Part shown: positions 8,899 through 43,051 of the stretch, one piece after another
How the letters are laid out: each line of letters begins with the position of its first letter
How positions within the stretch are numbered: the stretch's first letter is position 1
Source of the DNA: an uncultured bacterium
Lineage (GTDB): Bacteria; Fidelibacterota; UBA2242
DNA: 64,000 nucleotides
NCBI GenBank assembly: GCA_964441235.1
Contig: CAYTUQ010000002.1
Span: 1,705-65,704, forward strand
Direction: 5' to 3'
The notes under the pieces: generated by a model
What the model was told of the DNA's origin: nothing
Databases searched by the model: none
What the model saw: the letters and a program-made list of their open reading frames with translations, nothing else
Made by a program: the position numbers and the translations under genes

Positions 8899-8937
8899 CC
8901 GGAATTATTATTTCTGCCCTATAGGTTAAAAAAGATT

Positions 8938-9732: not shown

Positions 9733-9774
9733 ATAACTAATTCTGGAAAGGAATCTTTTAAAGAGTAATAATAT

Positions 9775-10056: not shown

Positions 10057-10070
10057 AAATTATTTGGAGG

Positions 10071-10643: not shown

Positions 10644-10645
10644 TA

Positions 10646-10915
10646 ATGAAAAAATGTAGATATTGCGGACATATTTTAGAAGAAGATGTGCTGCTTTGTC
10701 CTAATTGTGGACGTCGAATATATTTAAAGCGGTTTTACAGGTCCAGGAATGACAGGAAATTTTTAGGTATCTGCGGCGGGCTTGGAGAATATTTTGGAAT
10801 TGATTCAAACTTAATTCGTGTTATTGTCGCTTTAATTATTCTATGGACGGGAGTGTTACCCGGTTTTATTGTTTACTTTATACTTGGTGTCATAATTCCT
10901 TATTCAGATGAGTGA
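10646..10915 (+). CDS. PspC-domain membrane protein with N-terminal zinc ribbon
   Basis: CRYCGH...CPNCG ribbon. PspC motif 'RSRNDRKFLGICGGLGEYFGID...IRV' followed by a TM helix. Confidence 0.6.
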   Translation: MKKCRYCGHILEEDVLLCPNCGRRIYLKRFYRSRNDRKFLGICGGLGEYFGIDSNLIRVIVALIILWTGVLPGFIVYFILGVIIPYSDE

Positions 10916-11520
10916 AGTATCCCGGCATATTCTCAATATCACCCTAAACAGTATTGAATATTGAATAATGAACAGGGAATAATGAATTTTGAAGTTTTTT
11001 AAAATTAAAAGTTGTATTCTGAATGATTTGCTCTTCTTTATTCGACGTTCGTTGTTCGATATTCATCATTCAAAAGCACATTTATAAAAATTTGTGCCAC
11101 TTCGACTTCGCTCGGAGACCCGTCTGTCGTCAGGGCATTCTTTGTGCCTCGTATACTAAAAGTGGTCTTATTCATGGGTAGAAGAGATTTTAAAAATCTG
11201 TATCTTATTCTCTTTGATTATTACTTCTTATTTAAGAACAAGTTGAAAATCCCAAGTTGTCGGGGGATCAACGATTTTAAATTTTAGATGTTATCCATTC
11301 TCCCTCCTGCTCACTTACTCACTTGACTTTTAGTATAGTATCTCGTGGCTAATAACATCTCAAATATATATTGTTAAAATCGTAAATTTTAAGTAATATT
11401 CAGAGCATTGAAAATTGATTTTCATCTCATGATAAAAACTATCAGAAGGGTTTGGATGAATTAAATTATTTAATCAGCCAATACTCTGAATAGATAAAAA
11501 GATTTTATTGGAAGACTGTT

Positions 11521-14040
11521 TTGACTAAAAATATTCACTCTATCAATTATGATAGAGAGATTTTGCCTTTTGTGGAAAAGCCCGGTCGTTATGTAGGGCA
11601 TGAATTTAATATACAGCATAAAGACCTTTCAAAGGTAAAAGCATCTATTGTGCTTGGCTATCCTGACCTGTACGATGTCGGCATGTCTTATCATGGATTT
11701 CAGATACTTTATCATATTCTAAACAAAGACCGAGAAATAGCTGGAGAGCGTGTTTATGCTCCATGGCCGGATTTTGAAAAGCAACTCAGAAAGCATTCTG
11801 TTCCTTTATACAGCCTTGAGTCTTATACTTCTCTTCGCCAATTTGATATAGTAGGATTTACACTTCCTTATGAACTTACATTTACGAATATTCTGAATAT
11901 GCTGGATCTTTCCGGGATCCCGATATGGTCATACCAGCGGAAAGTAGATGATCCTTTTGTCATTGCAGGTGGGGTTGGGGCTTATAATCCGGAACCATTA
12001 GCTCCTTTTATTGACTTCTTCGTTATTGGAGATGCTGAGGAGGTAATAGTATCAATAGTGAAATTTGTTGCTGATAAACGAAGAAAAAAAGTGCCGCGCA
12101 TTGAGATTCTTAAAGAGCTGACTTACAGATTTCCCGGTATATACGTTCCTGCTCTTTATGAAATTGATATGGAAGAAAAGGACCTATTAAATCCAGCTCA
12201 TCCAATATTTGAGTATGTTCCTGAAAAAGTGAAATCTCTTAGAGTTTCAAAGCTTTTACCTGATTTTTACCCGGATTTTCCTATCATGCCGCTTGTTGAA
12301 ATTGTGCAGGATCGTCTGGTGATTGAGATTATGCGTGGATGTACACAAGGATGTAGGTTTTGCCAGGCAGGTATGATCTATAGACCTGTTAGGGAGCGAC
12401 CTTATAAAGACCTCGTAGACCAAATTCAGAAATCACTACCGAAAACTGGTTATAACGATATATCTTTGCTTTCTCTTTCTACATCAGATTATACAGGATT
12501 AGATAATCTTGCTAGCAAAGTTTTAGATAATTTGATTGCTCAGCATATATCAATTTCTCTCCCATCCCTTCGGCTTGATAGTTTTACTGAGAGAATAACA
12601 AAGTTGGCTAAGCAGACACGGAAGTCAGGATTAACATTTGCTCCTGAAGCTGGATCCTCAAGACTCAGGCATGTTATTAATAAAAATGTTACAGATGAGG
12701 ATTTGTTACAATCTACAGAAATAGCATTGCGGAATGGTTGGAGATTAATAAAACTCTACTATATGTTAGGTCTTCCAACAGAGACTGAAGCTGACATTGA
12801 TGCTGTTATTGAGCTTTCAGGAAAGGTTCTTCAAATTGGAAAGGGGAGACTTTCTCTCAATGTAACGCTTTCGACATTTATTCCTAAGCCGTTTACTCCC
12901 TTTCAATGGGAAGAACAAGATTCTGTGGAAAAGATCCAGAACAAACTGGACTTTGTAAAACCTGAACTCAGGTCGCTAAGAAAAATAAAAGTGATGGCTC
13001 GTGATCCTATATGCTCACAAATAGAAGGCGTGATTTCAAGGGGCGATAGAAGAATAGCAAATGTAATATTTGAGGCATGGAAACATGGTGCAAAGTTCGA
13101 TTCCTGGCATAAATATTTTTCAGCTGAAGTCTGGGACACTGCTTTTAAGAAAGCTGGCGTTGATTCTCAAAAATACATATCAGAAAGAAAAGAGGATAAA
13201 GCCTTATCATGGGATATTATAGACCCTTTAATAAGTAAAAAGTATCTTCTTAGTGAACGAGAAAAATCATATATGGGTGAGATAACACCTGACTGCCGCA
13301 ATGGATGTACCGGATGCGGTGTTTGTAAACCTAACATTTTGGATATGATAATTGTTGGCGGTAATAAGGGGACAACATCTGATAATCTTATTGAGAAAAA
13401 TGATAAAGAGGTTGAACCTGTAAAATACCGCCTGAAATATCGAAAAGGAAAGGAGATGAAATTTACATCACAGCTCGATATACTTCGAATATTTCAACAA
13501 GCTTTTAGGAGAGCTAAATTGAACCTTATCTATTCCCAGGGGTTTAATAAAAGGCCAAAGATTTCTACGGGTTTTTCACTACCTCTTGGATACACTTCAG
13601 AGGAAGAATATATCGAAATAACCTTAAAGAATAGAGTTCCTGAGCTATGTGAATGTATTAATGATAATCTTCCTAATGGTTTAAAAGTTATCAATTCTTT
13701 AGAAATACCATTAAAATCTCCTGCAATCTCCAGTTTAACTAATGGAATAGATTATGAAGTGACTTTTTATGCTGAATTGCCGCGAAATATTGATGATGCC
13801 ATAAATAATTTGTTGTTTAAGAAAGAACTTGCTATCAGCAGGAAGCGAGGTGAAGAAACAAAGCGAATTGATATTCGTAAATATATCAGTTCTATTTCAA
13901 GAAAAGATCGAAAATTACTTGTAAAAGTAAATGTAGAAGATGGGAAAACTGTAAGAATAATTGAGATACTTAAGAAATTAAATATAGAGAAATTTCCCAC
14001 TCAGGTACATAGATTAAAAACATATTTAAAAGAGTTATAA
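11521..14040 (+). CDS. radical SAM protein (TIGR03960-type B12-binding/rSAM) fused to DUF2344 (TIGR03936-like)
   Basis: CTQGCRFCQAG in the CxxxCxxC context. The N-terminal region is typical of the rng-associated rSAM family and the C-terminal ~250 aa are DUF2344-like. It lies directly upstream of rng. Start codon is TTG. Confidence 0.65.
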   Translation: MTKNIHSINYDREILPFVEKPGRYVGHEFNIQHKDLSKVKASIVLGYPDLYDVGMSYHGFQILYHILNKDREIAGERVYAPWPDFEKQLRKHSVPLYSLESYTSLRQFDIVGFTLPYELTFTNILNMLDLSGIPIWSYQRKVDDPFVIAGGVGAYNPEPLAPFIDFFVIGDAEEVIVSIVKFVADKRRKKVPRIEILKELTYRFPGIYVPALYEIDMEEKDLLNPAHPIFEYVPEKVKSLRVSKLLPDFYPDFPIMPLVEIVQDRLVIEIMRGCTQGCRFCQAGMIYRPVRERPYKDLVDQIQKSLPKTGYNDISLLSLSTSDYTGLDNLASKVLDNLIAQHISISLPSLRLDSFTERITKLAKQTRKSGLTFAPEAGSSRLRHVINKNVTDEDLLQSTEIALRNGWRLIKLYYMLGLPTETEADIDAVIELSGKVLQIGKGRLSLNVTLSTFIPKPFTPFQWEEQDSVEKIQNKLDFVKPELRSLRKIKVMARDPICSQIEGVISRGDRRIANVIFEAWKHGAKFDSWHKYFSAEVWDTAFKKAGVDSQKYISERKEDKALSWDIIDPLISKKYLLSEREKSYMGEITPDCRNGCTGCGVCKPNILDMIIVGGNKGTTSDNLIEKNDKEVEPVKYRLKYRKGKEMKFTSQLDILRIFQQAFRRAKLNLIYSQGFNKRPKISTGFSLPLGYTSEEEYIEITLKNRVPELCECINDNLPNGLKVINSLEIPLKSPAISSLTNGIDYEVTFYAELPRNIDDAINNLLFKKELAISRKRGEETKRIDIRKYISSISRKDRKLLVKVNVEDGKTVRIIEILKKLNIEKFPTQVHRLKTYLKEL

Positions 14041-29752: not shown

Positions 29753-30211
29753 TTATTTTTTCTTCTTTTTAGGTTTTTTCTTGGGTTTATCGGAAGATTC
29801 ATTTACTGAATTATCTTCATGGGATTCGTCCTCCCAATCATCAATAATTGCGATGTTATCCCCAAAAATATTCCATGCATCTTCTTCATTCTCATTTTGA
29901 AGACTTTTTTCGCGTTCTAATTCCTCTTCAAATTCGTCCCAGACTTCCTTACGCTTTTCAAACTTAGACGGATCTATTTCAGGCTCATCATAATCTTCCA
30001 GTTCTTCCTTTAACATTTCATCTCCATATAGACTCATATCAAAGAAATCTATATCATCTACTATATCATAGAAAACGAGTAACTCGAGGAAATTTAAATA
30101 TTTGGGATTTCGTAAATTTTTCTTACAGTGTGGACAAATTAAAGATTTTTTTAATTGTTCTTCCGATAATGGCTGACCACATTCTGGGCAAGCTAAATCT
30201 TCCATTGTCAC
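29753..30211 (-). CDS. zinc-ribbon protein with acidic middle and poly-Lys tail
   Basis: CPECG...CPHCKK ribbon, then a D/E-rich stretch and ...KKKPKKKKK. Confidence 0.35.
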   Translation of the reverse strand: MTMEDLACPECGQPLSEEQLKKSLICPHCKKNLRNPKYLNFLELLVFYDIVDDIDFFDMSLYGDEMLKEELEDYDEPEIDPSKFEKRKEVWDEFEEELEREKSLQNENEEDAWNIFGDNIAIIDDWEDESHEDNSVNESSDKPKKKPKKKKK

Positions 30212-30395
30212 TCCTCAATAATTGCGGCGGTAAATATAAACTGTTAAGCCCAGTTGGTCAAGAGAAATTTTAGATTTTTTTAATATTTTATTTTATGTAA
30301 AAATATTACTCTTAAAACGCATGAAACGCTTATTTTAATTACCTTTTATAATAAAATTCATACAGAACTTTTATATTGTGTATTACTGAAATTTT

Positions 30396-30929
30396 TCAAG
30401 TATTATTCTCAGTCGTCTGTTTATGTATAGATGTTATCAGGCTCTTTATTTGGATGTACCCGGATTCAATGGAATTATCTTCCTTCTTGTCAATTTGCAT
30501 ATTAAAACAGAAATCGGAATAATCTGATTTAAAGCCGATTCGTAATTGTACATTGCTATTATTAACGAAATATGCTGTCGTTAAATTGAAATCAATATTT
30601 AAATCAGCTGCTGCAATATAATTGTACTGAAAAATTTCTTTTACCAGACTATCTGAGGGTAGCAGAGACCTGCCAATATCAGAATTTAAAACAGGTATAA
30701 AACGGTTTGGGTCAATATTCTTGATAATCGGAAAAAATGCCTGGTGAATTATTGCCTTTATTTTAATACTATGCTCATCTATTAATGGGAAAAATACACG
30801 CTGTGCAATTTTAAATGGTATCGTATCAAATGGTAAACAAATGAGTATATATTCCTCATCTGAAGAATGCTGTGGACTGAGATTTCCGGTGCCCAATAAT
30901 TTTTTAACAGTTCGCTTTGATGTACTCAA
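30396..30929 (-). CDS. hypothetical protein
   Basis: ORF only. Marks the left edge of the defense island. Confidence 0.25.
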   Translation of the reverse strand: MSTSKRTVKKLLGTGNLSPQHSSDEEYILICLPFDTIPFKIAQRVFFPLIDEHSIKIKAIIHQAFFPIIKNIDPNRFIPVLNSDIGRSLLPSDSLVKEIFQYNYIAAADLNIDFNLTTAYFVNNSNVQLRIGFKSDYSDFCFNMQIDKKEDNSIESGYIQIKSLITSIHKQTTENNT

Positions 30930-31408
30930 TTATATCTCAATATTTTATCCTTATATCAAAATGCCTTTTTTTATATGGTACGCCTATAAGTCGAAGGGAA
31001 CGATTTTAAAAGACCTTTTTTCTTATCACTCACTAAACATTCCTTATTTTTTATTGGGTGGAAAATAAGTTATTCAGATGAAAAACAAAAGATATTTTAA
31101 ACCTGCACAGTAATTCACCAAGTTATAGGTTTTGCTCGTACCACGAAGCTCTGCTTCGCAAGCATATTTGCGAAGCAGTACGTAGGACGCGGTACATTTA
31201 TCCGTTTTAGTAAGAAGATCAGAAGACACGTCTGTGCCCGTAACTGACTCATTACCTTGCAAAACCAGGATAATGTTATCACTCATCAAACTTGTTATAT
31301 TATCTTAGATGATAAATAACAAAAGTTTTTATAGAAATTTAATTTATTGTCTTTTTACTTATTATCTGTAATTTTGTTTTCTGTGAAGATTTAAATAGGG
31401 AAATAACG

Positions 31409-31693
31409 ATGAGCATTAAAATAAAAAAGTTCGGCACTTTTGAGGGAGTTTTGACTCTACGCTCCTTGCTACTCTATTTTATTTACGGCAATAATTATAG
31501 AACTAAGCCTGCTGGTTATTCCGTAAATGATATTGGAAAAATAGATTTCTCCAAATTACGTAATGTTACAATTGGTAGGATTTTTTCTGAATTAAATATA
31601 ATTGAGCAGTGGGGACGGGAATTTACAAATATTATTGAATCTTGTAGGCAATATAAAAATATCGTTCCGGAATTCAAAGAAGAATTATTGTAG
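31409..31693 (+). pseudogene. remnant of HATPase_c_4-type (RecG-C-terminal-like) putative transcriptional regulator
   Basis: The C-terminal 'QWGREFTNIIESCRQYKNIVPEFKE' resembles the HATPase_c_4 tail 'G.GI.R..E.C...G.P.P.F'. At 94 aa it is far shorter than intact members. Confidence 0.3.
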
Positions 31694-32020
31694 TTTAAGA
31701 TTATTTTTTGGAATAAGAAAATAGATAAAAAAGTCGGAGATAAGCTCGGAGAAAAGGTGGTCAGAAAATCTTGCAAAAAGCTAAAAATATATTAGACTTA
31801 GTTAAAACAAATCCACATATTTCAAAAAGTGAACGCACTGCGTTCAGAATTGAGCTGGACGCATTATAGTCTATTGTTGAAGGTAGAAATTGATGTTGTT
31901 GACCATATTATTGCCACCAAAACTGAATATTTTAGTTTTAAAGATAGAAAATTATTGCAATGTTGCTGAAAGTTTAATATTTTCATTTACCTGTATAAAT
32001 TTATACAGGAATTATAAAAT

Positions 32021-32602
32021 ATGAAAAATATAAAGGCTATAGAAATCTTACAAAATTCAGGGAAGAAGATTTTCACCCTTTCTGAAATAAAGAATATTTT
32101 AGGCATTGAGAAAGATAATACAATCTACAAAAAAGTAGAATCTTTGATAAAAGATCGGATATTAAAAAGGGCAATTAAAGGAATCTATTATTTTACTTAT
32201 AATTCACCGTCAGATTTTGAATTAGCTAATCATCTTTATCAACCGTCTTATGTCTCTCTTACTTCGGCGTTAAATTTCCATGGAATTTTAGTCCAGGTGC
32301 CATATAAAATAACTTCTGTTACTCCTAAATTAACACGGGAAATTTATATTAACGAAAAGACCTTTAAATATTCTCATATCTCAAAAGATTATTTTTGGGG
32401 ATATCAAAAAGTAGAAGGATTTCTAATTGCAGAACCAGAAAAAGCATTTTTGGATGTTCTGTTCTTTATGAGCTTGGGGAGGATTATTATAAGTTACGAT
32501 GAACTTTTGTTAGATAGGATTGATTATGAAAAATTTTCAGAAATGACCAAAAAAATTAAAAACCCTAACTTTCACAGATTTTTAAAAAAATTAAAATTAT
32601 GA
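32021..32602 (+). CDS. AbiEi-type antitoxin/transcriptional regulator (type IV TA / abortive infection)
   Basis: N-terminal wHTH (KNILGIEKDNTIYKKVESLIKDRILKRAIKGIYYF). Its stop overlaps the start of the downstream AbiEii gene (ATGA). Confidence 0.55.
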   Translation: MKNIKAIEILQNSGKKIFTLSEIKNILGIEKDNTIYKKVESLIKDRILKRAIKGIYYFTYNSPSDFELANHLYQPSYVSLTSALNFHGILVQVPYKITSVTPKLTREIYINEKTFKYSHISKDYFWGYQKVEGFLIAEPEKAFLDVLFFMSLGRIIISYDELLLDRIDYEKFSEMTKKIKNPNFHRFLKKLKL

Positions 32603-33399
32603 TTACACCTGAACAGATTCAAGATTTATCAAAAAAAAAGAGGATAAATCAAGATACTATACTGCGAGAATATCTTCAACTTTTATTTTTGCAGAATCTT
32701 TATAGCGAAAAGTTGTCACAGAAAATTTATTTTAGAGGCGGAACAGCAATTCATTTGCTTTTAGGTTCTTCACGATTTTCAATGGATTTGGATTTTACTT
32801 CAGAAATTTCTACAACTTGTCTGGAAAAATTAATAAAAAAGATTGTTGATAGAATGAATTTGGAAATTCCAGATATCAGATTAAAATCATCAAGAAAAAG
32901 AATCAATCACTCATTTTCTAAGATTCTATCCTATTATCCAAAAGAGAAGAAATACCCTGTTAATATTGCAATTGATTTCTCTTTAAGAGAAAAACCTGTG
33001 AAAAAAACTCAAATAACAGTATTGAAAACTGATTTTCCAATAAGTGGTTTACCTGTAATTTCACATCTACATTGGCAGGAAATCTTAGCAGAAAAAATCA
33101 GGGCAATCTTGATTCGTGGAAAAGGAAGAGATTTATATGATATTTATTATTTGGTTATGAAAAATATCCGCCAGCTGGCAGATTGGGATGTGGTGAAAGA
33201 AAAAATGAAGATATATCCAGAAGTTGATATTGATACAAATATGAATACTCTTATTAGTAGAATTGAAAAATTGGGAAACAAAGAGCTTAAAAATGATTTA
33301 GCCCAGTTTTTACCTGATTCTGAAAGAAATTCTCTTTTGCCAATATTGAAAGACGAGTTAATTAAAGAACTTGAAAAATATAAACAAACACGAGGATGA
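32599..33399 (+). CDS. AbiEii/AbiGii nucleotidyltransferase toxin (DUF1814)
   Basis: YFRGGTAIHLLLGSSRFSMDLDF matches the GGTAL...R.S.DLDF nucleotidyltransferase signature. Confidence 0.7.
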   Translation: MITPEQIQDLSKKKRINQDTILREYLQLLFLQNLYSEKLSQKIYFRGGTAIHLLLGSSRFSMDLDFTSEISTTCLEKLIKKIVDRMNLEIPDIRLKSSRKRINHSFSKILSYYPKEKKYPVNIAIDFSLREKPVKKTQITVLKTDFPISGLPVISHLHWQEILAEKIRAILIRGKGRDLYDIYYLVMKNIRQLADWDVVKEKMKIYPEVDIDTNMNTLISRIEKLGNKELKNDLAQFLPDSERNSLLPILKDELIKELEKYKQTRG

Positions 33400-33490
33400 G
33401 TTTATAATTCGGTGAAAATTATGAACAAAAATAATTACCAAAATTGGACAAATGATGCTTATAATAATTAAATAGGACCATGAAATAGTT

Positions 33491-34216
33491 ATGGATGAAA
33501 AGAGTTGGATAAAAAATAGACCGGAGTATGAAAGACCTCGTGAAAAACTTTTGAAGTTTGGTTCTAAGAATCTTTCTAATTCGGAATTACTTGCTATCTT
33601 TCTTAGAATAGGTGTTAAAGACAAAAGTGCAATTCAACTTGCAGCAGAAATATTAGAAAAATTTGGTGGGATTAGAGGAATTTGTACTGCCAAAATAGAA
33701 GATTTACTTACAATAAAAGGATTGGGTATAGCAAAGATTGCTCAATTAAAAGCAACTTTAGAACTCGCTGAAAGGTATCTTAAAGAAGATGTTAAGCAAA
33801 AATCAATTGTAGAAAGCTCAAAGGAAGTTTTAAATTATCTTCATCATTCAATGCAAGATTTAGATCATGAATTAATGAAAGTAATCCTTTTGAATGGTCA
33901 AAATCAAATAATAAATATTGTAGATTTATTTAGAGGCTCTATAAGTTCATCAAGTGTTTATCCAAGGGAGATAATCAAATTGGCTCTTAAATATTCAGCT
34001 TTAGCAATTGTTATTGTTCATAATCATCCTTCTGGAATTTCAAAACCAAGCGAAGGTGATAAAAAACTTACAAAAGAAATTATTTTTGCATGTATTTCTA
34101 CAGGTATTAAAGTTCACGACCATATAATAATTGGCAATAAAAAGCATTATAGTTTTGCTGATGAGGGAATTATTGAAGTTTACGAAAAAGAATATGAAAA
34201 GAGGATGAAACTATGA
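33491..34216 (+). CDS. radC: RadC-like JAB/MPN domain protein
   Basis: N-terminal HhH (LLTIKGLGIAKIAQLKATLELAERY) and a JAMM motif (HNHPSG...S..D). Confidence 0.8.
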   Translation: MDEKSWIKNRPEYERPREKLLKFGSKNLSNSELLAIFLRIGVKDKSAIQLAAEILEKFGGIRGICTAKIEDLLTIKGLGIAKIAQLKATLELAERYLKEDVKQKSIVESSKEVLNYLHHSMQDLDHELMKVILLNGQNQIINIVDLFRGSISSSSVYPREIIKLALKYSALAIVIVHNHPSGISKPSEGDKKLTKEIIFACISTGIKVHDHIIIGNKKHYSFADEGIIEVYEKEYEKRMKL

Positions 34217-36096
34217 GTCCAGTAAAATATCAAAGAGTGGATGAAATAGAAAAAAGGGGATATTTAAGAGATTATGCAACGGGAAAATGGGTTAGGTCAA
34301 GGCCCGAAGAAGGACCAAGACAAATATTTGAAAAAAGGTTAGTTGGAGAATATGGCTACGACAAAGGTCAAATTGAAATTGAGTTCTTAATACAAAAAGG
34401 AGCTAGAAAAATCGGTCCTGCTGATATAGTTGTTTTTCACGATTCAAAAAGAAAAACATTTGATAACATAAAAATAGTGGTTGAAACAAAGAGAAAAGAA
34501 AAAAATGATGGAAAAGATCAATTAAGATCTTATTCAATATCACCATCCCAAGAATTTGCAGTTTGGTTTAACGGAAAAGACATTCTATTTCTACAGGTTC
34601 TGAAAAAAGCACCATGGTTTAGAGAAATCCCAGATATTCCTAAAAAAGGTGAGACATTAGAAGATGTAGGGCTTTATTATAAGAAGGATTTAAAACCTGC
34701 AACAGAACTGAAAACTGTTTTTGAGATTTGTCACAATTATATTTATGCAAATGAGGGACTCTTGAAAGAGAAGGTATTTAATGAGGTGCTAAAACTAATT
34801 TTTATCAAAATGGCTGATGAAAAGAAATCAAATCCCAAATGTGAGTTTAGAATTACTGACAAAGAATTAAAAGAATTAGAAGAGGGCAAAGAAAATGCAT
34901 TTGTGAATAGGATTTTGAATCTTTTTAGTGAAGTAAAAACAAGATATAGTGATGTTTTTGAGAAAAATGAAAGAATATATCTAAGACCTTTAACAATTGC
35001 CTTTATTGTCAGTCAATTCCAAAAATATAGTTTGATTAACACTAAAGCAGATGTTAAAGGAACAGCATTTCAAACATTTGTTTATGCTCATCAAAGAGGA
35101 GAGAGAGGGGAGTTCTTTACACCACATCCAATTGTTGAATTAGCAGTAAATATGCTAAATCCAAAAGACAATGAAAGATTTATTGACCCTGCTTGTGGTT
35201 CTGGCGGTTTCCTTGTTAAAGGAATGAATTATATTAAAGAAAAATTTATTAAAGATAATCCTCATAGGATAACTGAAGCAGATAAATTTATAGGTGAATA
35301 TGCACATTCTTATGTTTCTGGAATTGATATTAATCCTGATTTGGCAAAAGTTGCAAAGATGCACATGATTTTGTATGATGATGGACACACGGGAATTTTT
35401 TCAGCGAATACTTTAGAGAGTTTTGATAATTTGGTAAAAACTGCACAAGAAATGGGAGTTCCAAGAGCAATACAACCAAGACCAAATACTTTTCAAGTTT
35501 TGATGACCAATCCACCTTTTGGGACAAAGGGAAAAGTAACGAATAAAAGAATCTTGGAAAACTTTGAACTTGGCCATAAATGGAAAAACGATAAAGAAAT
35601 AGGAGGATGGATAAAAACAAATAAAATCTTGGATGGGCAAGTTCCAGATATTTTATTCATTGAGAGATGTTTGCGGTTATTGGACAATCATGGTAGAATG
35701 GCAATTGTTTTGCCTGACGGTGATTTAACAAATCAAAATACAGAGCATATAAGAGAATTTATTAAACAAAAAGCAAGATTACTGGCAGTAGTTTCTATGC
35801 CTATTGGAACATTTATGCATGCTGGAGTTAATCCAAAAGCAAGTGTATTGTTTTTACAAAAATTGGATGAAGAAAAATTAGAAGAGTTGAATAGAAAAGA
35901 TTATCCCATCTTCATGGCCATTGCTGAGAGGATAGGCTATGATTTAACAAGTAAAACACCTAAAATACTTTACAAAAGAGATGAGAAGGGAGAGATAATT
36001 AAATATAAAGAAGGAAAACCAATTATTGAATCTGATATTCCAGAAATAATAGAAGCGTTTAACGGATTCAAAAGGAAATATAACTTGAGGTTTTAA
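34213..36096 (+). CDS. hsdM: Type I-like N6-adenine DNA methyltransferase (HsdM) with N-terminal HsdR_N-like domain
   Basis: Motif I DPACGSGGFL and motif IV NPPFG. The N-terminal ~130 aa (ARKIGPADIVVFHD...IKIVVETKRKEK...QLRSYS...FAVWFNGKDI) match the HsdR_N PD-(D/E)xK-like fold. Confidence 0.75.
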   Translation: MSPVKYQRVDEIEKRGYLRDYATGKWVRSRPEEGPRQIFEKRLVGEYGYDKGQIEIEFLIQKGARKIGPADIVVFHDSKRKTFDNIKIVVETKRKEKNDGKDQLRSYSISPSQEFAVWFNGKDILFLQVLKKAPWFREIPDIPKKGETLEDVGLYYKKDLKPATELKTVFEICHNYIYANEGLLKEKVFNEVLKLIFIKMADEKKSNPKCEFRITDKELKELEEGKENAFVNRILNLFSEVKTRYSDVFEKNERIYLRPLTIAFIVSQFQKYSLINTKADVKGTAFQTFVYAHQRGERGEFFTPHPIVELAVNMLNPKDNERFIDPACGSGGFLVKGMNYIKEKFIKDNPHRITEADKFIGEYAHSYVSGIDINPDLAKVAKMHMILYDDGHTGIFSANTLESFDNLVKTAQEMGVPRAIQPRPNTFQVLMTNPPFGTKGKVTNKRILENFELGHKWKNDKEIGGWIKTNKILDGQVPDILFIERCLRLLDNHGRMAIVLPDGDLTNQNTEHIREFIKQKARLLAVVSMPIGTFMHAGVNPKASVLFLQKLDEEKLEELNRKDYPIFMAIAERIGYDLTSKTPKILYKRDEKGEIIKYKEGKPIIESDIPEIIEAFNGFKRKYNLRF

Positions 36097-37034
36097 TGAT
36101 GGAAAAAGAAAAAATGACTTTTGAGGATTTTTGGAATCATGAAACAGAATATTTTAAAGAAACGGCAAAAGAAAGTTTTAAAAAAAATAAACAGGGAGTT
36201 GAATATTTTATAGAATATCTCGATAATTATATAGATCTATTTGGCATAAACAAGTATTACCAAAAAGATGAAATAACAAATTCTATTTCTGCTATGTTTC
36301 TCTTTTACTCCTTTAAACAATTGCGATGGGTTAATCATGAGATTCTATCAGGTGCTTATTTTGAGGCAATCAGAGATTTAAGATTTGCATTTGAAACTAT
36401 TGTTTGGGCACATTTTTTAGATGAGTGGATTAACGAAAAAACAAAAGAATACCTAAAAGTAAGTATAGGAGCAGGAATATCTTTAAAATATGAGATTTTA
36501 AAGTTAAGAGATGAGATATATGATGTCAAAGGTTATAGAAAAAAGAAAAATGAAAGAGAGAAAATAGTTAAGGAAAATGTTGGCAAATTCATAAAAAAGC
36601 ATGCCCAAGATTTTACAAACGAAGAAACGTGGAAATATAAAGAACTTTATTTTGAAATCTTGAAGAACTTGGGAGTTGGATTTACTGGAAAAAATGGATT
36701 AATTGCTAAACTTCCCTTAGAAGAGGAAGATGAAAAGAAGTTGGACAAACTTTATTCAGAATTATCAAAATATATCCATCCATCAAACAGAATAATAAAA
36801 CCGTTTTATGAAGACGATATTGGTTTAATCTTTAATTTTTGCTATAATAAAATATTATTTAATAGCTGTATGAGGTTTCTTGTAGATGTTATGGACTTAT
36901 TTTATGCCATTCTTTACGTCCATTTTGAGAAACTTAGAGAAGTGATTAAAGAAAAAATTGTAGATTTTTGTAAGGTTAATTTTAATATGGAATTTCCGAT
37001 AACTGAAAAATTAATACGGGATGACCTAGTATGA
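36096..37034 (+). CDS. hypothetical protein embedded between hsdM and hsdS
   Basis: 312 aa with no recognisable motif. Start overlaps the hsdM stop and stop overlaps the hsdS start, so it is operonic. Confidence 0.3.
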   Translation: MMEKEKMTFEDFWNHETEYFKETAKESFKKNKQGVEYFIEYLDNYIDLFGINKYYQKDEITNSISAMFLFYSFKQLRWVNHEILSGAYFEAIRDLRFAFETIVWAHFLDEWINEKTKEYLKVSIGAGISLKYEILKLRDEIYDVKGYRKKKNEREKIVKENVGKFIKKHAQDFTNEETWKYKELYFEILKNLGVGFTGKNGLIAKLPLEEEDEKKLDKLYSELSKYIHPSNRIIKPFYEDDIGLIFNFCYNKILFNSCMRFLVDVMDLFYAILYVHFEKLREVIKEKIVDFCKVNFNMEFPITEKLIRDDLV

Positions 37035-39439
37035 TAATTTCAGAAGCAAAATTTTCAGAAGCTTATACCAAACTAAGATTTGATGCTGAATATTTTAAAA
37101 CAGAATTCATTGAAACACGATATAGATTAGAAAAAATTAATGCATCCAAACTTACTTCTATTGCTGAAATATCAAAATTAAGGAGGGATCCTACAAAAGA
37201 ATCGGATAAAGAATTTATATACATTGATATAAGCAATATTGATACATCTGTTGCTGATGTCAGTACACAGAAAATAATAGGTTATAAAGCACCAACAAGA
37301 GCGAGAAAATTAGTTCAAACAGGAGATGTTATAGTATCTACTGTACGACCGAATAGAAATGCCGTCGCAATTATACCAAAAGAATTAGATAATAGCGTTT
37401 GTTCTACAGGCTTTTGTGTTTTAAAACCGACGGAAGTAAATTTGCATTATTTGTTTGTTTTCTTAAAAACAAAATATGCAATAAATCAACTAGTAAGAGA
37501 AACTATGGCTTCTATGTATCCCGCAGTTAGTGAAGATCAAATTAAAAAGATATTGGTGTTTTTACCATCTTTTGAATTCCAGTTTCACGTAGAAAAACTC
37601 GTCAAAGAAGCATTTTCAAAACGAAAACTTGCTGATGAAAAATACAAACAAGCAAAACAACTTTTAGAAAAAGAATTAGGACTTGATAAATTAAAATTAA
37701 AAGAAGAAAAAACATTTGAAGCAAAATCATCAGAACTATTTGGAAGTAGAAGATTTGATTCTGAGTACTACAAGCCGAAGTGCAAACAAATCATAAGGTT
37801 TCTTAAAAATTCTGGGTTTGAAGTAAAGAAATTAAAAGAGATTGTAAAAATTTCAAATAAGAAAATTGACCCAACAAAGGAGCCAACCAAAAGGTTTAGA
37901 TATGTTCCAATAGCAAAGATAAATTCAAATGGAGAAATTGATGAGTGGGATGAATTTAATGGTTGGCAGGCACCAAGCAGGGCAAGAATGCTTATTAAAA
38001 AAGGGGATGTTTTAGTCTCATCATTAGGTGGTTCGCTTAACAAAATAGCATTAGTTCCTGAAGAATTAAATAATTCAATTGCTACAACAGGAACCTTTGT
38101 CATCAATTCTGAAAACTTTTATAGTGAATTCTTATTTTTATTATTCAGAACAGAACTAATCAAATTGCAGTTGGAGCGGAAAACAGCAGGTGCAATAATG
38201 ACTGCTGTTCCTAAAACAACTTTTGGAAATTTACTAATTCCAATTATTCCAAAACAAAAGCAAGAAAATATTGCAAAATTAATAAACCAATCTTTTACTT
38301 TGAGAAAAGAAGCAAAACAACTTTTAGAAGAGGCAAAAGAAAAGGTGGAAAGTATGATAGAAAATCCTTTAGAAATCTCTGAAACCCAACCCGTTCTCCG
38401 TAGTCCTGATAAAATTGGGACGAAGGGTGAACCTGAGATTATTATCCCTTTTCCTATTCCTTCAAAATTAATAAGCCTTAAACCGCCTGTCAAAGTAAAA
38501 TATAAAGATTACCAAATGCTTGATGGTTCAATAAAGAAATTGGTTCAACAAATAGGAGATGGTTCAATCATTAAAAGATTTGAAAAAACACCAATACCTA
38601 AAAGTAAAATAGATGTAGTTTGTCCTCATTTTCTTGAATTAAAATGGGCAACAGGATGTCCTTATGATTGTTCCTGGTGCTATCTGAAAGGAACTTTTAG
38701 ATTCTTGCCGTATAAAGCGAAACCACATATTAAGGATTTTGATAAGATAGAAAAACATACAAAGACATTTTTGGAATATGTTCAAACTCCTGAAGTATTA
38801 AATACAGGTGAGCTGGCAGACTCACTAATGCTTGAAGTAAAGAATAAATCATTTGTTAAGTTTATTGTTCCACTTTTTGAAAACCAAAATAAGCATAAGA
38901 TTCTCTTTTTGAGTAAATCAAACAAAATAGAAAATCTTTTATTACTTAATACACATCGTCAGGTTATAGTAAGTTTTAGTCTTAATGCTATTCCTGTGGC
39001 ACAAAGATGGGAAAAGAAAGCACCTTCAGTTGAAGACCGCATAAAAGCAGCAGGGATTCTATACAAACAACGATTTGAAGTAAGGATAAGGATAGACCCA
39101 ATGATCCCTGTGGAAAACTGGGAGCAACTTTATACTGATTTAATAGACCGCATATTTAATTCGTTTATACCTGAAAGAATTACTTTAGGTTCTCTTAGAG
39201 GATTACAGAGTACTATCAATGGAACATCAGATAAGTCCTGGGTAAAATATCTATCTGAACGCTCAAACTGGGGAAGAAAAATAGATATTAATTTAAGGCT
39301 TGCTATGTACAAAACAATTATCTCTTATTTAAATGAAAAGTATAAATATAATAAGGTCGCTCTTTGCAAAGAAACTTTGGCAATTTGGGATATACTAAAT
39401 ACGAATTATAAAAATATAAAATGTAATTGTGTGTGGTAG
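37031..39439 (+). CDS. hsdS: Type I specificity subunit (two TRDs) fused to a C-terminal SPL/COG1533-like radical SAM domain
   Basis: Residues 1-~450 carry two HsdS target-recognition domains (RFDAEYF...STGFCVLKP..., RFDSEYYKP...TTGTFVI...) with conserved coiled-coil spacers. Residues ~500-802 carry CPYDCSWCY (CxxxCxxC) followed by spore-photoproduct-lyase-family landmarks (LFLSKS, SFSLNA, IRIDPMIP). It is a single continuous ORF. Confidence 0.6.
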   Translation: MIISEAKFSEAYTKLRFDAEYFKTEFIETRYRLEKINASKLTSIAEISKLRRDPTKESDKEFIYIDISNIDTSVADVSTQKIIGYKAPTRARKLVQTGDVIVSTVRPNRNAVAIIPKELDNSVCSTGFCVLKPTEVNLHYLFVFLKTKYAINQLVRETMASMYPAVSEDQIKKILVFLPSFEFQFHVEKLVKEAFSKRKLADEKYKQAKQLLEKELGLDKLKLKEEKTFEAKSSELFGSRRFDSEYYKPKCKQIIRFLKNSGFEVKKLKEIVKISNKKIDPTKEPTKRFRYVPIAKINSNGEIDEWDEFNGWQAPSRARMLIKKGDVLVSSLGGSLNKIALVPEELNNSIATTGTFVINSENFYSEFLFLLFRTELIKLQLERKTAGAIMTAVPKTTFGNLLIPIIPKQKQENIAKLINQSFTLRKEAKQLLEEAKEKVESMIENPLEISETQPVLRSPDKIGTKGEPEIIIPFPIPSKLISLKPPVKVKYKDYQMLDGSIKKLVQQIGDGSIIKRFEKTPIPKSKIDVVCPHFLELKWATGCPYDCSWCYLKGTFRFLPYKAKPHIKDFDKIEKHTKTFLEYVQTPEVLNTGELADSLMLEVKNKSFVKFIVPLFENQNKHKILFLSKSNKIENLLLLNTHRQVIVSFSLNAIPVAQRWEKKAPSVEDRIKAAGILYKQRFEVRIRIDPMIPVENWEQLYTDLIDRIFNSFIPERITLGSLRGLQSTINGTSDKSWVKYLSERSNWGRKIDINLRLAMYKTIISYLNEKYKYNKVALCKETLAIWDILNTNYKNIKCNCVW

Positions 39440-39451
39440 AAAGGAAAGATT

Positions 39452-40549
39452 ATGTCTATTAAAGAAACAATATGGAAGATTGAACTGCACACACAGGCAA
39501 AGCATGAAATACTAAAGCGGTATCTTCAAGCGTGGCTTCCAATAATGAGTACTGTTAGTGGGCGTATTTTGTATATTGATGGCTTTGCAGGTCCAGGAAA
39601 GTATTTAGACGAAAATAATCAGCCAACTATTGATGGCTCTCCACTTGTGGCTATGAATGCAGCAATAAAGCACAAGTTACCGCTAAAGGCGGAGATAGTA
39701 TTTCTTTTAATTGAAGCAGACCCTAAAAGATTTGACTATCTTAAAAATTTGCTTTCAGAAATAACTTTTGCAGATAGTATGAAATATAAAGTAGTATGTA
39801 GTAAATTTGATGAAACTCTTACATCTATTCTAAACGACTTTGATGAGCAGAAGAAACAATTAGCTCCAACTTTTGCATTCATTGACCCATTTGGATATTC
39901 CGATACACCTCTTGCAGTTGTTAAACGAATAATGGAGAGCCCAAAGTGTGAGGTCCTTATTACATTTATGTATAGTTTTATAAAAAGAGCTATTGTCAAA
40001 CTCGACCAAGAAGATCATCTAGACATTCTTTTTGGTACCCAAGAATGGAGAAAAATTCGAGATATTGGTTATCCTTCAAAGAAACGAGAATTTGCCCAGC
40101 AACTTTATAAAAAACAATTGGAAAAGGAAGCCAATATAAAATATGTGCGTTTTTTTGAGATGATTAATAAGTTCAATCAAACTGAATATTTTTTATTTTT
40201 CGGAACTAATAGTCTTGAAGGACTTAGATATATGAATTCGTCAATGTGGAAAGTTGATCCGAGTGGAACATTTCAATTTTCTGATAGAACAAATCCTAAT
40301 CAAACAGTGCTCTTTACTCTAGAGCCTAACTATAACTTACTTAAAAGATTAATTGTCAGAGAATATAAAGGTAAAACGGTCTCAGTTGAAGAAGTTGATG
40401 AATTTGTATTAGTGGCTGGTTTCACTCATTTCAAAAAGAATATTTTGGAACCTATGGAAAGAGCAAAACCTGCTCAGATAGAAGTGATTAAGAGTAATAG
40501 GAAGAGAAGATATACTTATCCACCAAGAACTATAATTAAATTTTTGTAA
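39452..40549 (+). CDS. hypothetical protein with methyltransferase-like DxFxGxG motif, possible radical-SAM partner ('TcmP-like')
   Basis: LYIDGFAGPGKY resembles SAM-MTase motif I and FAFIDPFGY resembles a degenerate motif IV. Immediately downstream of the rSAM fusion, with a 12-nt gap. Assignment to the three-Cys-motif-partner family is from memory only. Confidence 0.3.
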   Translation: MSIKETIWKIELHTQAKHEILKRYLQAWLPIMSTVSGRILYIDGFAGPGKYLDENNQPTIDGSPLVAMNAAIKHKLPLKAEIVFLLIEADPKRFDYLKNLLSEITFADSMKYKVVCSKFDETLTSILNDFDEQKKQLAPTFAFIDPFGYSDTPLAVVKRIMESPKCEVLITFMYSFIKRAIVKLDQEDHLDILFGTQEWRKIRDIGYPSKKREFAQQLYKKQLEKEANIKYVRFFEMINKFNQTEYFLFFGTNSLEGLRYMNSSMWKVDPSGTFQFSDRTNPNQTVLFTLEPNYNLLKRLIVREYKGKTVSVEEVDEFVLVAGFTHFKKNILEPMERAKPAQIEVIKSNRKRRYTYPPRTIIKFL

Positions 40550-40643
40550 AAGAATTTAAAACATATTTTGATACAAAAATTAAATTTAATATCAGGTCAG
40601 TTTTAAAGTGAAATGCTAAATAAAAATTAAGGTGAGGAATAGG

Positions 40644-40922
40644 ATGAAGAAAAATCAGAAAACTGGCTACCAATATGAAAAATCTCAAGCAAAAAAACAC
40701 CGAGGTAAACATCTTGGTGGCCCAGGAAAACCGGATTATCAAAGAGGTAAAATTAAGGGTGAAGTAAAAGACTGGAAACATCCCGTACATAGCGGAGTAA
40801 TTAAAAAAGCCATAAAAAATGGTGTAAAAGAAGTTGTAAGTAAAAGTGGTTTCACAAAACCAGCTATACAATTGGCTAAAAAGAAAAATATAAAATTTAT
40901 AAGACGAGGAAAAAAAGTTTAG
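40644..40922 (+). CDS. small basic protein with PD-(D/E)xK-like motif (Mrr-cat-like restriction endonuclease fold?)
   Basis: GGPGKPDYQRGKIKGEVKDWKH fits D-x(9)-E-x-K. Very Lys/Arg-rich. RBS GGTGAGG precedes ATG 40644. Confidence 0.25.
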   Translation: MKKNQKTGYQYEKSQAKKHRGKHLGGPGKPDYQRGKIKGEVKDWKHPVHSGVIKKAIKNGVKEVVSKSGFTKPAIQLAKKKNIKFIRRGKKV

Positions 40923-41164
40923 AAAAAAATATAATTCTCCTATTCAGTCATTATAAATAAGATAAAAAATTTCTTATTTATAATGCAAATTTATTAGAAG
41001 CAATTGTTACTAAAAATCTTATTATTATGAAAAAAACATAGACATTTAGAGATTTGCCGATATAAGAGCAATAAATAGCATAAATGCAAAAGAAAAGCAA
41101 AATAGCTTTTTGAAGAAGCAAAAAGAAAAATTGAGAAGATGATTTTAAGATCATCTACAAGAAA

Positions 41165-41524
41165 ATGACTTTATTTATAGAGAACAAAATGAATAGAGAT
41201 AAAAATATCAGAAAAATAATTTCAAGAATGGTAGAGAAAATCAAAACTGAATATCAACCAGAAAGGATAGTTCTCTTTGGTTCTTATTCTTGGGGAAAGC
41301 CAACAAGGGATAGTGATGTAGATTTACTTATTATTAAAAAGACAAATGAAAGACATTTAGAGAGAGCAATTAGGGTTAGAGAAATTGTTGATAAAGAAAA
41401 CCGAATGGTTCCACTAGATATTGTGGTATATACTCCACAAGAGCTCAAACAGAGATTGAAAGCAAGAGATTGTTTTATAAAAACAATATTAACAAAAGGA
41501 GATGTAGTTTATGAACAAGAATGA
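41165..41524 (+). CDS. nucleotidyltransferase (MntA-like antitoxin, Pol-beta superfamily)
   Basis: LFGSYSWGKPTRDSDVDLLII is the GS...D.D motif. Overlaps the downstream HEPN gene by 14 nt. Confidence 0.7.
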   Translation: MTLFIENKMNRDKNIRKIISRMVEKIKTEYQPERIVLFGSYSWGKPTRDSDVDLLIIKKTNERHLERAIRVREIVDKENRMVPLDIVVYTPQELKQRLKARDCFIKTILTKGDVVYEQE

Positions 41525-41894
41525 AGCATTTAGATGGTTCAAACGAGCTCAAAAAGATATTGAAGATGCAGAATTCCTCTTGAAAGAAAGCCGAACTTTA
41601 GAAAATGTAGCACTCCTTATTCAACAAGCAATTGAAAAATATCTCAAAGGATTCATAATATATCATGATTGGGAATTGGAGAAAATCCATGATTTGATAA
41701 CGCTTATTAACTATGCGAGTAAAATTGACAAATCCTTTGAGAAGTTTGTTCCTTCTCTCAGAATTATCACTAATTTCTATTTTGAAAGCCGCTATCCTAT
41801 TACCTATGAACCAGATTATACAAAAGAAGAAATAAGAGAATCTCTTAAAGAAGCAAAGAAACTTATTGCTCTAATTAAAGAAAAAGTAAAATAA
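41511..41894 (+). CDS. HEPN domain protein (HepT-like toxin)
   Basis: HEPN helical fold with ...ESRYP...Y... signature. Paired with the MNT gene. Confidence 0.6.
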   Translation: MNKNEAFRWFKRAQKDIEDAEFLLKESRTLENVALLIQQAIEKYLKGFIIYHDWELEKIHDLITLINYASKIDKSFEKFVPSLRIITNFYFESRYPITYEPDYTKEEIRESLKEAKKLIALIKEKVK

Positions 41895-42013
41895 TGCTTT
41901 GATTACTTGTTCAATCCCCTGAAGCAACAAGAAGCAAAGCAACTCTTAGAAGAAGCAAAAAGAAAAGTTGAGAAGATAATGGATAGAGAAAGTGATAAAA
42001 ACAGGTAGGAAAA

Positions 42014-43051
42014 ATGTTTAAACCCAAATTTACATACACAAATAAAATTGTAAGGTTGCTTACCAGAATATCTGCAGCGAGAGAGATAATTCTTAATTCG
42101 CCTTTGATCCCGGGGTGGAATGTTACATTAAGGCAGGAAGCAATAATCCACAGTGCTCATTCGTCCACGCGTATTGAGGGAAATAGATTATCATTGGAAC
42201 AAGTAAGCGAATTATCTCTTGGAAGAGAAGTAATGGCGACTCGAAGAGATAAACAGGAAGTTTTGAACTATCTGAATGTGCTAAAAAATATTGATAAGCT
42301 GATAAAAGGAAATTCTATAAGTGAGAAAGATATCTTAAATATTCACCGTATGGTAACAGAAGACACATTAGACAATTCTAATGATTGTGGGGTTTATCGT
42401 AACCGTTATGTTGTGGTTGGAAATAGATTTACAGGGGAGATTTTCTTTAAGCCACCGCAAAATGAGGATGTTCCCGGGTTAATAGAAGATTTGATTGAAT
42501 GGATAAACTCTGAGGAATCAAAATCACTCGAGCCTGTTATTGAAGCGGGTATTGAGCATTATGAATTTGTCAGAATTCATCCTTTTGTTGATGGTAATGG
42601 GAGAACTGCAAGAGTTCTGGCAACTTTGATTCTCTACATGCGAGATTTCGACACAAAACAATTTTTTTGCCTTGATGATTATTACGATTCTGATAGACAA
42701 GCATACTATTTAGCATTACAAAGTGTTAAACAAGACACATTAGACCTGACAAACTGGTTGGAATATTTTGTCGAGGGAGTAAGTGTAAGCACTGAGGCTG
42801 TCAAAGAAAGAGTGATAAGGTTAAGTAGTGAGAGACTGAGAAGATCAAAAGGCGGGCAAATAGCTTTAACCGAAAGACAGATAAGAATTGTGGAATTTAT
42901 TAATAAAAATGGTAAAATAACTAATAGAGATGTACGGGGAATGTTTAAACTTTCGGATGAAGGTGCATTGAGAGAGATTAAAAAACTAATGGTGTTGAAA
43001 GTTATTCAAAGCCAGGGTAAAGGGAGAGGGTTGCATTATGTCCTTAAATAA
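42014..43051 (+). CDS. fic: Fic/DOC family protein with Fic_N and C-terminal wHTH
   Basis: HPFVDGNGRTARV is the Fic motif HPFx[DE]GNGR. N-terminal ...HSSTRIEGN... is a Fic_N motif. Confidence 0.8.
   Translation: MFKPKFTYTNKIVRLLTRISAAREIILNSPLIPGWNVTLRQEAIIHSAHSSTRIEGNRLSLEQVSELSLGREVMATRRDKQEVLNYLNVLKNIDKLIKGNSISEKDILNIHRMVTEDTLDNSNDCGVYRNRYVVVGNRFTGEIFFKPPQNEDVPGLIEDLIEWINSEESKSLEPVIEAGIEHYEFVRIHPFVDGNGRTARVLATLILYMRDFDTKQFFCLDDYYDSDRQAYYLALQSVKQDTLDLTNWLEYFVEGVSVSTEAVKERVIRLSSERLRRSKGGQIALTERQIRIVEFINKNGKITNRDVRGMFKLSDEGALREIKKLMVLKVIQSQGKGRGLHYVLK

Follow-up and report, generated by a model that had tools for sequence, protein, structure and literature searches.

Type I restriction-modification (R-M) systems of the EcoKI type have the composition HsdM2-HsdS-HsdR2, and the usual route by which their specificity (S) subunits diversify is the exchange of target recognition domains (TRDs). 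Type IIB enzymes, such as BsaXI and, of the same kind, BcgI, form a second point of reference. To our knowledge all R-M and related defenses use polar chemistry: transfer of methyl groups or sulfur, and hydrolytic nucleases. Spore photoproduct lyase (SPL) is a radical S-adenosylmethionine (SAM) enzyme in which Cys140 (in G. thermodenitrificans) is the hydrogen-atom donor, with Tyr96 and Tyr98 as a relay. A further reference is TcmP, the three-Cys-motif partner protein; its named partner, the three-Cys-motif protein, we take to be DUF5131. In the RadicalSAM.org resource DUF5131 and SPL fall within the same megacluster (PMC9477430). Here we describe an operon in which elements of all of these meet. 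It lies in a 64-kb stretch of DNA (hereafter the window: positions 1,705 to 65,704 of contig CAYTUQ010000002.1, from an uncultured bacterium of the Fidelibacterota) and spans positions 33491-40549, with genes for a RadC family protein, a 627-residue methyltransferase (M), a protein of the orf312 family, a fusion of an S subunit to an SPL-like radical SAM domain (S::rSAM) and TcmP; starts and stops of successive genes overlap or nearly abut.

The fusion is encoded by one uninterrupted open reading frame (ORF) of 802 codons (37031..39439, forward strand), as the initial annotation had stated. Its first ∼445 residues (37031..38365, forward strand) constitute a complete HsdS module with two TRDs and two conserved helical spacers: Pfam Methylase_S (PF01420) matches two stretches, that is, both TRDs; the PADLOC Specificity_I profiles align nearly end to end and cover both halves of S; and positions 18-390 of the 392 in the PADLOC mad5 profile align to residues 52-443. 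Among structures in the PDB, TRD1 is matched by the S subunits 5ybb_D and 3okg and TRD2 by 1yf2; S.BsaXI gives a weak match to the same part of the protein. The spacers, readable from the sequence at ∼190-225 and ∼415-450, carry the repeated helices KEA..K..A..KY.QAKQLLEKELG and RKEAKQLLEEAKEKVESMIE. A cognate N6-adenine methyltransferase gene adjoins S (34213..36096), and a standalone S with the same TRDs exists elsewhere (P0244, 68% identity).

A linker (residues 446-489; 38366..38497, forward strand), delimited by alignment with standalone S and rSAM proteins, leads from the S module to the rSAM domain. Its description as rich in proline and lysine holds as to composition (9 Pro and 7 Lys among the 50 residues 446-495), but not all of this segment is linker: some 20 residues are new, the remainder being the native N-terminal tail of standalone rSAM homologues, and the conserved rSAM domain begins near residue 490.

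The rSAM domain itself (residues 490-802; 38498..39439, forward strand) contains the sequence CPYDCSWCY at 543-551, within which C543, C547 and C550 form the CxxxCxxC triad (nt 38657-38680), the motif being set in a partial TIM barrel. Pfam SPL (PF20903), a broad COG1533-type model, matches with 57.4 bits against a gathering threshold of 27, in agreement with the earlier assignment of a C-terminal radical SAM domain. SPL is the closest relative in both sequence and fold, although the claim that the landmarks of SPL are present holds only in part. The CxxxCxxC context is there, and SPL Tyr98 is kept as Y551, but Tyr96 is replaced by an invariant tryptophan (W549), and the segment that aligns to the region of Cys140, LNTGE(I/L)ADSLM, is without a cysteine in any homologue. 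Only the barrel core of SPL (SPL residues 113-284) can be aligned to the domain (13% identity over that part), and the SPL equivalog model TIGR04070 scores 71.5-73.2 bits against a cutoff of 400. A true orthologue of SPL is ruled out by this score and by the lack of a cysteine at the position of Cys140.

Searching metagenomes with the C-terminal 352 residues returned ∼2000 cluster representatives, most of them standalone proteins of 305-345 residues; the best 120 of the ∼2000 are 58-81% identical to the query and come from many bacterial and archaeal phyla. In GTDB data restricted to one genome per species the domain is encoded in 197 stretches, all from metagenome-assembled genomes (MAGs), of carriers that include Dehalococcoidia, Zixibacteria, Omnitrophota, Nitrospirota, ANME-1, Methanoperedens and Bathyarchaeota, lineages that we take to be anaerobic. 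In 79-80 of 80 sequences the same seven cysteines recur, namely those of the CxxxCxxC triad together with C531, C779, C798 and C800 (numbering of the fusion). The four additional residues suggest a second metal or Fe-S site, and the seven invariant cysteines, together with identities of 55-80% between members from bacteria and archaea, argue for demanding enzymatic chemistry. No PADLOC model matched the domain, even at an E-value of 1 or less.

Several MAGs contain two or three copies of the rSAM gene (up to three in a single MAG at L044, L045 and L069; also L007 and L059). Tandem rSAM paralogues, with TcmP on the opposite strand, were seen at L085 (2090-4200), L095 (8885-11015), L096 (9983-12113) and L097 (3429-5563); by comparison with the domain from the window they are ∼37% identical to each other, and three of the four IMG/VR contigs with a member of the family are among them. 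Those four contigs are the only close matches among 2.9 million viral contigs, and none was found in isolated phages; a phage origin, or a phage hypermodification module, was rejected on these grounds.

Of particular importance is whether the S::rSAM junction is real and whether it recurs. Separate assemblies from JGI, Logan and NCBI yield the identical 802-residue product on 18 contigs, representing at least five samples and three assembly sources. Four diverged fusions were also found: P0243 (807 residues), P0242 (800 residues), the protein of locus L105 (791 residues) and P0266 (partial, at least 566 residues). These are 55-60% identical to the protein from the window and keep the reading frame through linkers that differ in length; their operons have the same make-up (RadC, M, S::rSAM, TcmP). 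An assembly artefact or frameshift, which had been a concern for codons near the junction, is thereby ruled out, and the architecture originally described is genuine. P0266 comes from a Ca. Aerophobetes MAG; a further contig of that MAG (L008), which opens inside the rSAM domain and includes TcmP, probably continues the P0266 locus (L090).

Comparison of the P0243 locus (L087, 7527-13540) with the operon in the window is instructive: RadC is 96% identical and the linker plus rSAM domain 92% identical, whereas M is just 37% and the TRDs of S just 27% identical. Because the flanking parts are nearly identical while M and the TRDs have diverged, we conclude that the M/S specificity cassette has been exchanged and the S::rSAM junction kept. 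P0242 and P0266, for their part, have TRD1 in common with the window and a different TRD2. Exchange of TRDs and cassettes with retention of the junction indicates that the fusion is functional and under selection: S::rSAM is a genuine, recurrent and selectively maintained fusion. The exchange between the window and L087 appears to be bounded by the 3′-end of radC on one side and, on the other, by the last S helix or the linker.

At L052 S and rSAM are unfused, the stop codon of S overlapping the start of rSAM; a small indel would therefore suffice to create a fusion. The rSAM-domain search listed neither the 802-residue protein from the window nor the 92%-identical P0243, though both are in the database, and counts of long fusions from that search are thus underestimates.

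Immediately downstream of the fusion lies the gene for TcmP (39452..40549, forward strand), a protein with a class I SAM-methyltransferase fold (residues ∼1-270) and a C-terminal winged helix (∼276-365). The assignment is clear (TIGR04474, 218.9 bits against a cutoff of 53; PADLOC PDC-M30A, 3e-60). The family has ∼2700 cluster representatives in metagenomes, and in ∼58 of 80 loci TcmP is adjacent to rSAM, on either side, or fused to it in TcmP::rSAM proteins of 580-770 residues, which bears out the expected association of the 39452 gene with the radical SAM domain. Among 56 TcmPs next to or fused with rSAM the residues of motif I (DxFAGxG) are conserved in 49-55; the GSP motif keeps its G and S in 55 and its P in 51; an acidic residue occupies motif II in 50; and the D-P of motif IV is present in all 56. 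With its SAM-binding and DP motifs conserved, TcmP has the appearance of a working SAM-dependent enzyme, not of a scaffold. The nearest folds are those of the RNA methyltransferases RlmJ, Trm1 and TYW4; a link to RlmJ at the level of sequence was rejected, a profile search of the PDB having returned nothing, and the likeness is one of fold only. A search of the literature found no published function for TcmP. Methanobacterium formicicum encodes a TcmP (P0178).

Which families accompany TcmP and rSAM? The proposed pairing of the radical SAM domain with HsdS stands insofar as the fusion is recurrent, but the domain occurs mostly on its own, its regular partner is TcmP, and a hidden Markov model (HMM) of the methyltransferase core finds an N6-adenine methyltransferase within 3.5 kb on the same strand in just 14 of 80 loci. 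Even so, the commonest family operonically upstream of TcmP/rSAM is N6-adenine DNA methyltransferase (11 of 75 genes, from ∼45 loci), followed by RadC N-terminal, TaqI_C and Methylase_S domains. The arrangements are several. S::rSAM stands between M and TcmP in the window, at L087, at L105 and at L090 (taken together with L008); at L052 M is followed by S and by an rSAM gene that overlaps S; the order at L015 and L114 is M, S, TcmP::rSAM; an M::S fusion precedes TcmP::rSAM at L111-L113; and TcmP and rSAM come after a type IIG-like RM gene at L014, L020, L026, L028, L033, L036 and L058. Elsewhere a lone GMT-like winged helix is the N-terminal partner of rSAM (e.g., P0026, P0102, L024), or the RadC N-terminal helix-hairpin-helix domain is encoded by the gene preceding it (L016, L024). 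Every N-terminal fusion partner or partner gene of rSAM – HsdS, the winged helix of TcmP, the lone winged helix and the RadC N-terminal domain – is thus a DNA-binding module.

Most TcmP-rSAM loci are without any nuclease or other methyltransferase. In Ignavibacteria and Zixibacteria (L054, L060, L065, L073; ∼6000-14000) the pair stands between recX and alaS in the order cinA, thpR-like, recA, recX, [TcmP-rSAM], alaS, a position that reflects either an ancient and stable insertion or, possibly, a role related to DNA damage. In Dehalococcoidia (L033, L034, L040, L042, L050, L063, L066) it lies between an mtnA-like gene (IF-2B family) and an mtnP-like gene (PNP_UDP_1), optionally with the type IIG-like RM gene upstream (L028, L033, L036, L058); the products of mtnA and mtnP act in the salvage of the SAM by-products methylthioadenosine and 5′-deoxyadenosine. 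Some TcmP-rSAM loci adjoin MNT/HEPN pairs. No consistent third partner was found beyond the methyltransferase and RadC, downstream neighbours being housekeeping genes or MNT/HEPN. A recurrent neighbourhood of rSAM (L007, 6223-11005; L081, 10001-14972; L072) contains an HATPase_c_3 protein (∼530 residues), a ∼300-residue protein that matches no family and another radical SAM protein, unrelated to the SPL-like one, of 382-434 residues.

Close relatives of M and S in turn occur without rSAM: at L093 (RadC, OLD nuclease, M, S), at L103 (RadC, HARE-HTH, M, AbiJ/Abi_C, S, on a serine-recombinase element) and at L102 (M, S, then HMG-CoA reductase). M plus S is therefore an autonomous module. The operon in the window joins two modules that also occur independently: an HsdR-less M+S pair and a TcmP-rSAM pair.

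The M subunit of the window (34213..36096, forward strand; 627 residues) is an RM-type subunit of type I/type IIB design with a predicted nuclease domain. At its N-terminus is an HSDR_N_2 PD-(D/E)xK-like domain (residues 31-143; nt 34303-34641, forward strand; Pfam HSDR_N_2, 1.8e-16), in which the motif reads as apparently intact (P69-A-D71 ... E91-T-K93); the gamma-class N6-adenine methyltransferase core follows at residues 291-561 (nt 35083-35895, forward strand; IDPACGSGGF and NPPFG; Pfam N6_Mtase, 1.3e-34). The best PDB match is the type IIB enzyme RM.BsaXI (8w0p, 9.1e-25), ahead of type I HsdM proteins. The initial annotation was correct that HsdR is missing: the island has no SF2-helicase/ResIII ORF, and all ORFs of at least 700 residues in the window are housekeeping genes. 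Given the PD-(D/E)xK domain on M, however, lack of HsdR does not mean lack of a nuclease. The suggestion that HsdS would here position a radical enzyme in place of a nuclease overlooked this domain; RM.BsaXI is the best solved relative of M, and M+S also occurs alone.

Between M and S lies orf312 (36096..37034, forward strand), an accessory gene in a variable slot. It has no match in Pfam, NCBIfam, PADLOC or the PDB. Its family is small (93 representative homologues); Y88, R93 and R96 are invariant throughout, and DUF5677 is matched by a single member. The expectation that it would accompany the fusion failed: none of the other fusion loci (L087, L089, L090, L105) has it, which rules it out as a conserved component. 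Nor is it similar to the 315-residue gene beside rSAM in L007 or to the 308-residue gene after S in L093. Matches of the family profile to HEAT/alphaRep structures in the PDB stem from an alignment member that is fused to HEAT repeats, and are uninformative on orf312. The same slot contains a DUF1016/YhcG nuclease in L091 (6967-8004) and AbiJ_NTD4/Abi_C in L103 (3762-4652), and is empty in L087, L090 and L105: it resembles a hot spot for embedded accessory defense genes. In L091 (9753-11464) an AAA_15/AAA_21 ATPase and DUF4276 pair, which resembles the PARIS system, is inserted between the S gene and the standalone rSAM gene.

The first gene of the operon encodes a RadC family protein (33491..34216, forward strand), with a UPF0758_N helix-hairpin-helix and a RadC JAB domain (Pfam RadC, 5.9e-40; UPF0758_N, 1.1e-27; NCBIfam RadC, 248 bits against a cutoff of 180); its stop codon overlaps the start of M. 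RadC or its N-terminal domain precedes the methyltransferase or rSAM gene in L014, L016, L020, L024, L026, L052, L087, L090, L105 and L115. A scan for promoters and terminators found sites no more numerous than in shuffled sequence.

The operon sits in a low-GC island of ∼12 kb (30000-42000; GC 0.27-0.33 against 0.36-0.39 in the flanks). On the upstream flank, outside the system, is an AbiEi/AbiEii toxin-antitoxin pair identified by Pfam and NCBIfam (32021..33399, forward strand), which also flanks the fusion operon in L087 and L088; downstream are an MNT/HEPN pair (41165..41894, forward strand; PADLOC PDC-S09) and a Fic-domain protein (42014..43051, forward strand; PADLOC SoFic, 6e-58). Elsewhere the window holds housekeeping genes, among them those for AspRS, RNase G and a MoCo dehydrogenase. 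In their midst, at 11521-14040, another gene encodes an unrelated radical SAM protein (839 residues, Radical_SAM_N2 plus DUF2344), the second in the window, which has no connection with the fusion.

What might the fusion do? The recurrence of the fusion, and the fact that the habitual partners of rSAM are DNA binders, lead us to infer that the domain works on double-stranded DNA and that S gives it specificity; DNA as substrate is further indicated by SPL, the nearest fold, being a DNA enzyme. On this basis we tentatively favour site-directed covalent modification of DNA over radical-based restriction, with low confidence (a probability of roughly 0.4). S would assemble with two M subunits on a bipartite site, and the rSAM domain and TcmP would be kept over that DNA by the tether of ∼45 residues. 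SAM would be cleaved reductively, and the resulting 5′-deoxyadenosyl radical would take hydrogen from a nucleotide that is flipped out within the site or next to it. The outcome would be a covalent base modification, a second or elaborated self-mark that is possibly built on a methyl group. TcmP would supply a SAM-dependent transfer step, the four extra invariant cysteines may hold a second metal or Fe-S site, and restriction would fall to the PD-(D/E)xK domain carried by M.

We prefer modification since TcmP keeps a methyltransferase active site; since the TcmP-rSAM pair survives alone, partly at housekeeping positions, with neither protective enzyme nor nuclease; since the adjacent RM proteins already carry nuclease-like domains; and since the additional invariant cysteines suggest that the chemistry goes further than the abstraction of a hydrogen. 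Several points weigh against it. The literature search found no biochemical or genetic study of either the rSAM family or TcmP, and the evidence for the second metal site is conservation of residues. Where M+S already writes N6-methyladenine (m6A), the purpose of a second mark is unexplained. The near-absence of the rSAM family from viral contigs and phages is unusual for protective DNA modifications. Some M-S-rSAM loci are without TcmP in the DNA sequenced (L052, L089), and the proposed transfer step is therefore not obligatory. Finally, the defense-island setting, and the presence of TcmP/rSAM in the usual position of hsdR, suit an effector role equally well.

That effector role is a serious competitor, and the strongest, although we rate it as less likely than modification. 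TcmP and rSAM would be the effector of an HsdR-less type I-like system in which the m6A written by M+S is the self-mark: the S-tethered rSAM domain would take hydrogen from deoxyribose or base at unmethylated sites, and a strand break, an abasic site or a replication-blocking lesion (e.g., an intrastrand crosslink, by a reversal of the SPL reaction) would inactivate the invader. Such a role accords with the low-GC insert and its AbiE, MNT/HEPN and Fic modules, with the placement of TcmP/rSAM after S, where the restriction component usually sits, often with overlapping stop and start codons, and with the fact that HsdR-less M+S pairs serve other multi-gene defenses (M and S are distantly related to MAD2 and MAD5). 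Up to three copies per MAG, as with R-M systems, scarcity of the family in viral contigs, and the status of TcmP as the PADLOC defense-candidate component PDC-M30A point in the same direction. However, 66 of the 80 TcmP-rSAM loci have no separate protective methyltransferase nearby, some of them stable among housekeeping genes, and a DNA-damaging enzyme in such lone pairs would need TcmP itself to protect the host. The apparently intact PD-(D/E)xK motif already present on M and the very high conservation of rSAM, unusual for effectors in an arms race, also count against it, and we know of no radical SAM enzyme that acts as a nuclease.

A second alternative is that rSAM performs site-directed repair or erasure, reversing a lesion or stripping alkyl or methyl groups from DNA anaerobically, as a radical analogue of direct-reversal repair, with S enabling it to proofread or reset the sites of M+S. 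SPL, the nearest characterised relative, is a direct-reversal DNA repair enzyme; RadC has historically been annotated as a repair protein; the FCB-group loci L054, L060, L065 and L073 stand in recA, recX, alaS order, and RecR or an HhH-GPD glycosylase is nearby in others. All hosts, moreover, are MAGs of presumed anaerobes, in which O2-dependent dealkylation would be unavailable. Against this, the cysteine that closes the SPL repair cycle is absent from a region devoid of any cysteine; repair has no obvious need for swappable TRDs or for a partner with an intact methyltransferase motif; and the multi-copy, island-borne and horizontally scattered distribution is atypical of repair genes. We judge repair or erasure improbable.

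Still less probable, in our judgement, is that the fusion is mechanistically meaningless, a joining of independent neighbours by loss of a stop codon, and that rSAM and TcmP act on a substrate other than DNA, for example tRNA or rRNA. Accidental joining would be eased by the overlap of stop and start codons, the nearest folds to TcmP are those of RNA methyltransferases, and several standalone loci lie beside the tRNA-related genes alaS, mnmA, mnmE, trmO and dus. Yet at least five diverged lineages, which differ in their TRDs and M partners, have kept the fusion, the association with M-S recurs unfused and in other fusions, and the HsdS, RadC N-terminal helix-hairpin-helix and winged-helix partners all indicate double-stranded DNA. 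That a chimeric join or sequencing frameshift made the fusion, a possibility checked because the window is metagenome-derived, has nothing found in its favour and is practically negligible given the 18 identical contigs and the independent fusions with other linkers.

If site-directed modification or radical inactivation is correct, a radical SAM enzyme tied to a sequence-reading subunit would add a new chemistry to the sequence-specific marking or destruction of DNA. We see about even odds that the TcmP/SPL-like rSAM pair represents a widespread, unrecognised class of DNA-acting radical enzyme of anaerobic bacteria and archaea and that the operon in the window is the first R-M-type system with sequence-specific radical SAM chemistry delivered by S, whether the result is a new non-methyl mark (e.g., a methylated base that is elaborated further) or radical inactivation of unmarked DNA. 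Should the product be a new base modification, it may constitute a new epigenetic mark and also a DNA-modifying tool that is programmable by exchange of TRDs. The fusion would also give a first opening onto the function of a strongly conserved, uncharacterised family. It serves as a Rosetta stone that points to double-stranded DNA at a defined site as the substrate; because it names both substrate and targeting mechanism, the function of a large orphan rSAM family becomes directly testable.

How does the system compare with those already described? No library model (Pfam, NCBIfam or PADLOC) and no paper in the searchable literature describes an S-rSAM/TcmP system, consistent with the earlier claim that none was known. 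The rSAM domain resembles SPL (SplB; TIGR04070, PDB 4fhc) in the context of its CxxxCxxC (GC...C..CYL), in the tyrosine kept after the third cysteine and in its inferred substrate, SPL acting on duplex DNA. It differs in the low identity and score given above, in N- and C-terminal regions that cannot be aligned, in the missing Cys140 equivalent, the Trp in place of Tyr96 and the four extra invariant cysteines, in its regular TcmP partner and in its presence in MAGs of non-sporulating bacteria and archaea. As for TcmP, the downstream gene is a bona fide TcmP (TIGR04474) and matches the M30A component of the PADLOC candidate PDC-M30, but its partner in the window is an SPL-like rSAM that matches no PADLOC model; the literature search found no function for either TcmP-DUF5131 or TcmP-rSAM pairing. 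RlmJ, the 23S rRNA m6A2030 methyltransferase (6qe5), shares the fold of TcmP, which differs in having DPFG rather than DPPY, an added winged helix and an rSAM partner, with no profile-level similarity.

The M+S part has closer precedents. With type IIB enzymes (BsaXI, 8w0p) the window shares an RM subunit that combines an N-terminal PD-(D/E)xK domain with a gamma-class N6-adenine methyltransferase, a separate two-TRD S and the lack of HsdR; M is, however, shorter (627 against 916 residues) and its nuclease is predicted from sequence. We know of no type IIB enzyme with a radical SAM domain on S or with a TcmP partner. Classical type I systems share the S subunit with two TRDs and coiled-coil spacers, the swapping of TRDs and cassettes, and Abi-like accessory genes embedded between hsd genes, but the window has no HsdR translocase/nuclease in its 64 kb and its M has a nuclease-like domain. 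MADS likewise combines an HsdR-less M+S with other non-canonical genes, and M and S are distant relatives of MAD2 and MAD5. Both score below cutoff (MAD2, 476 against 720 bits; MAD5, 134 against 400 bits) and PADLOC detected no other mad genes in the island, which rules out membership of MADS; the libraries searched hold no MADS-named radical SAM or TcmP model. Taken together, the HsdR-less M+S chassis, in a defense island and with embedded accessory genes, is of a known kind; what is new is the radical SAM domain on S together with its TcmP partner.

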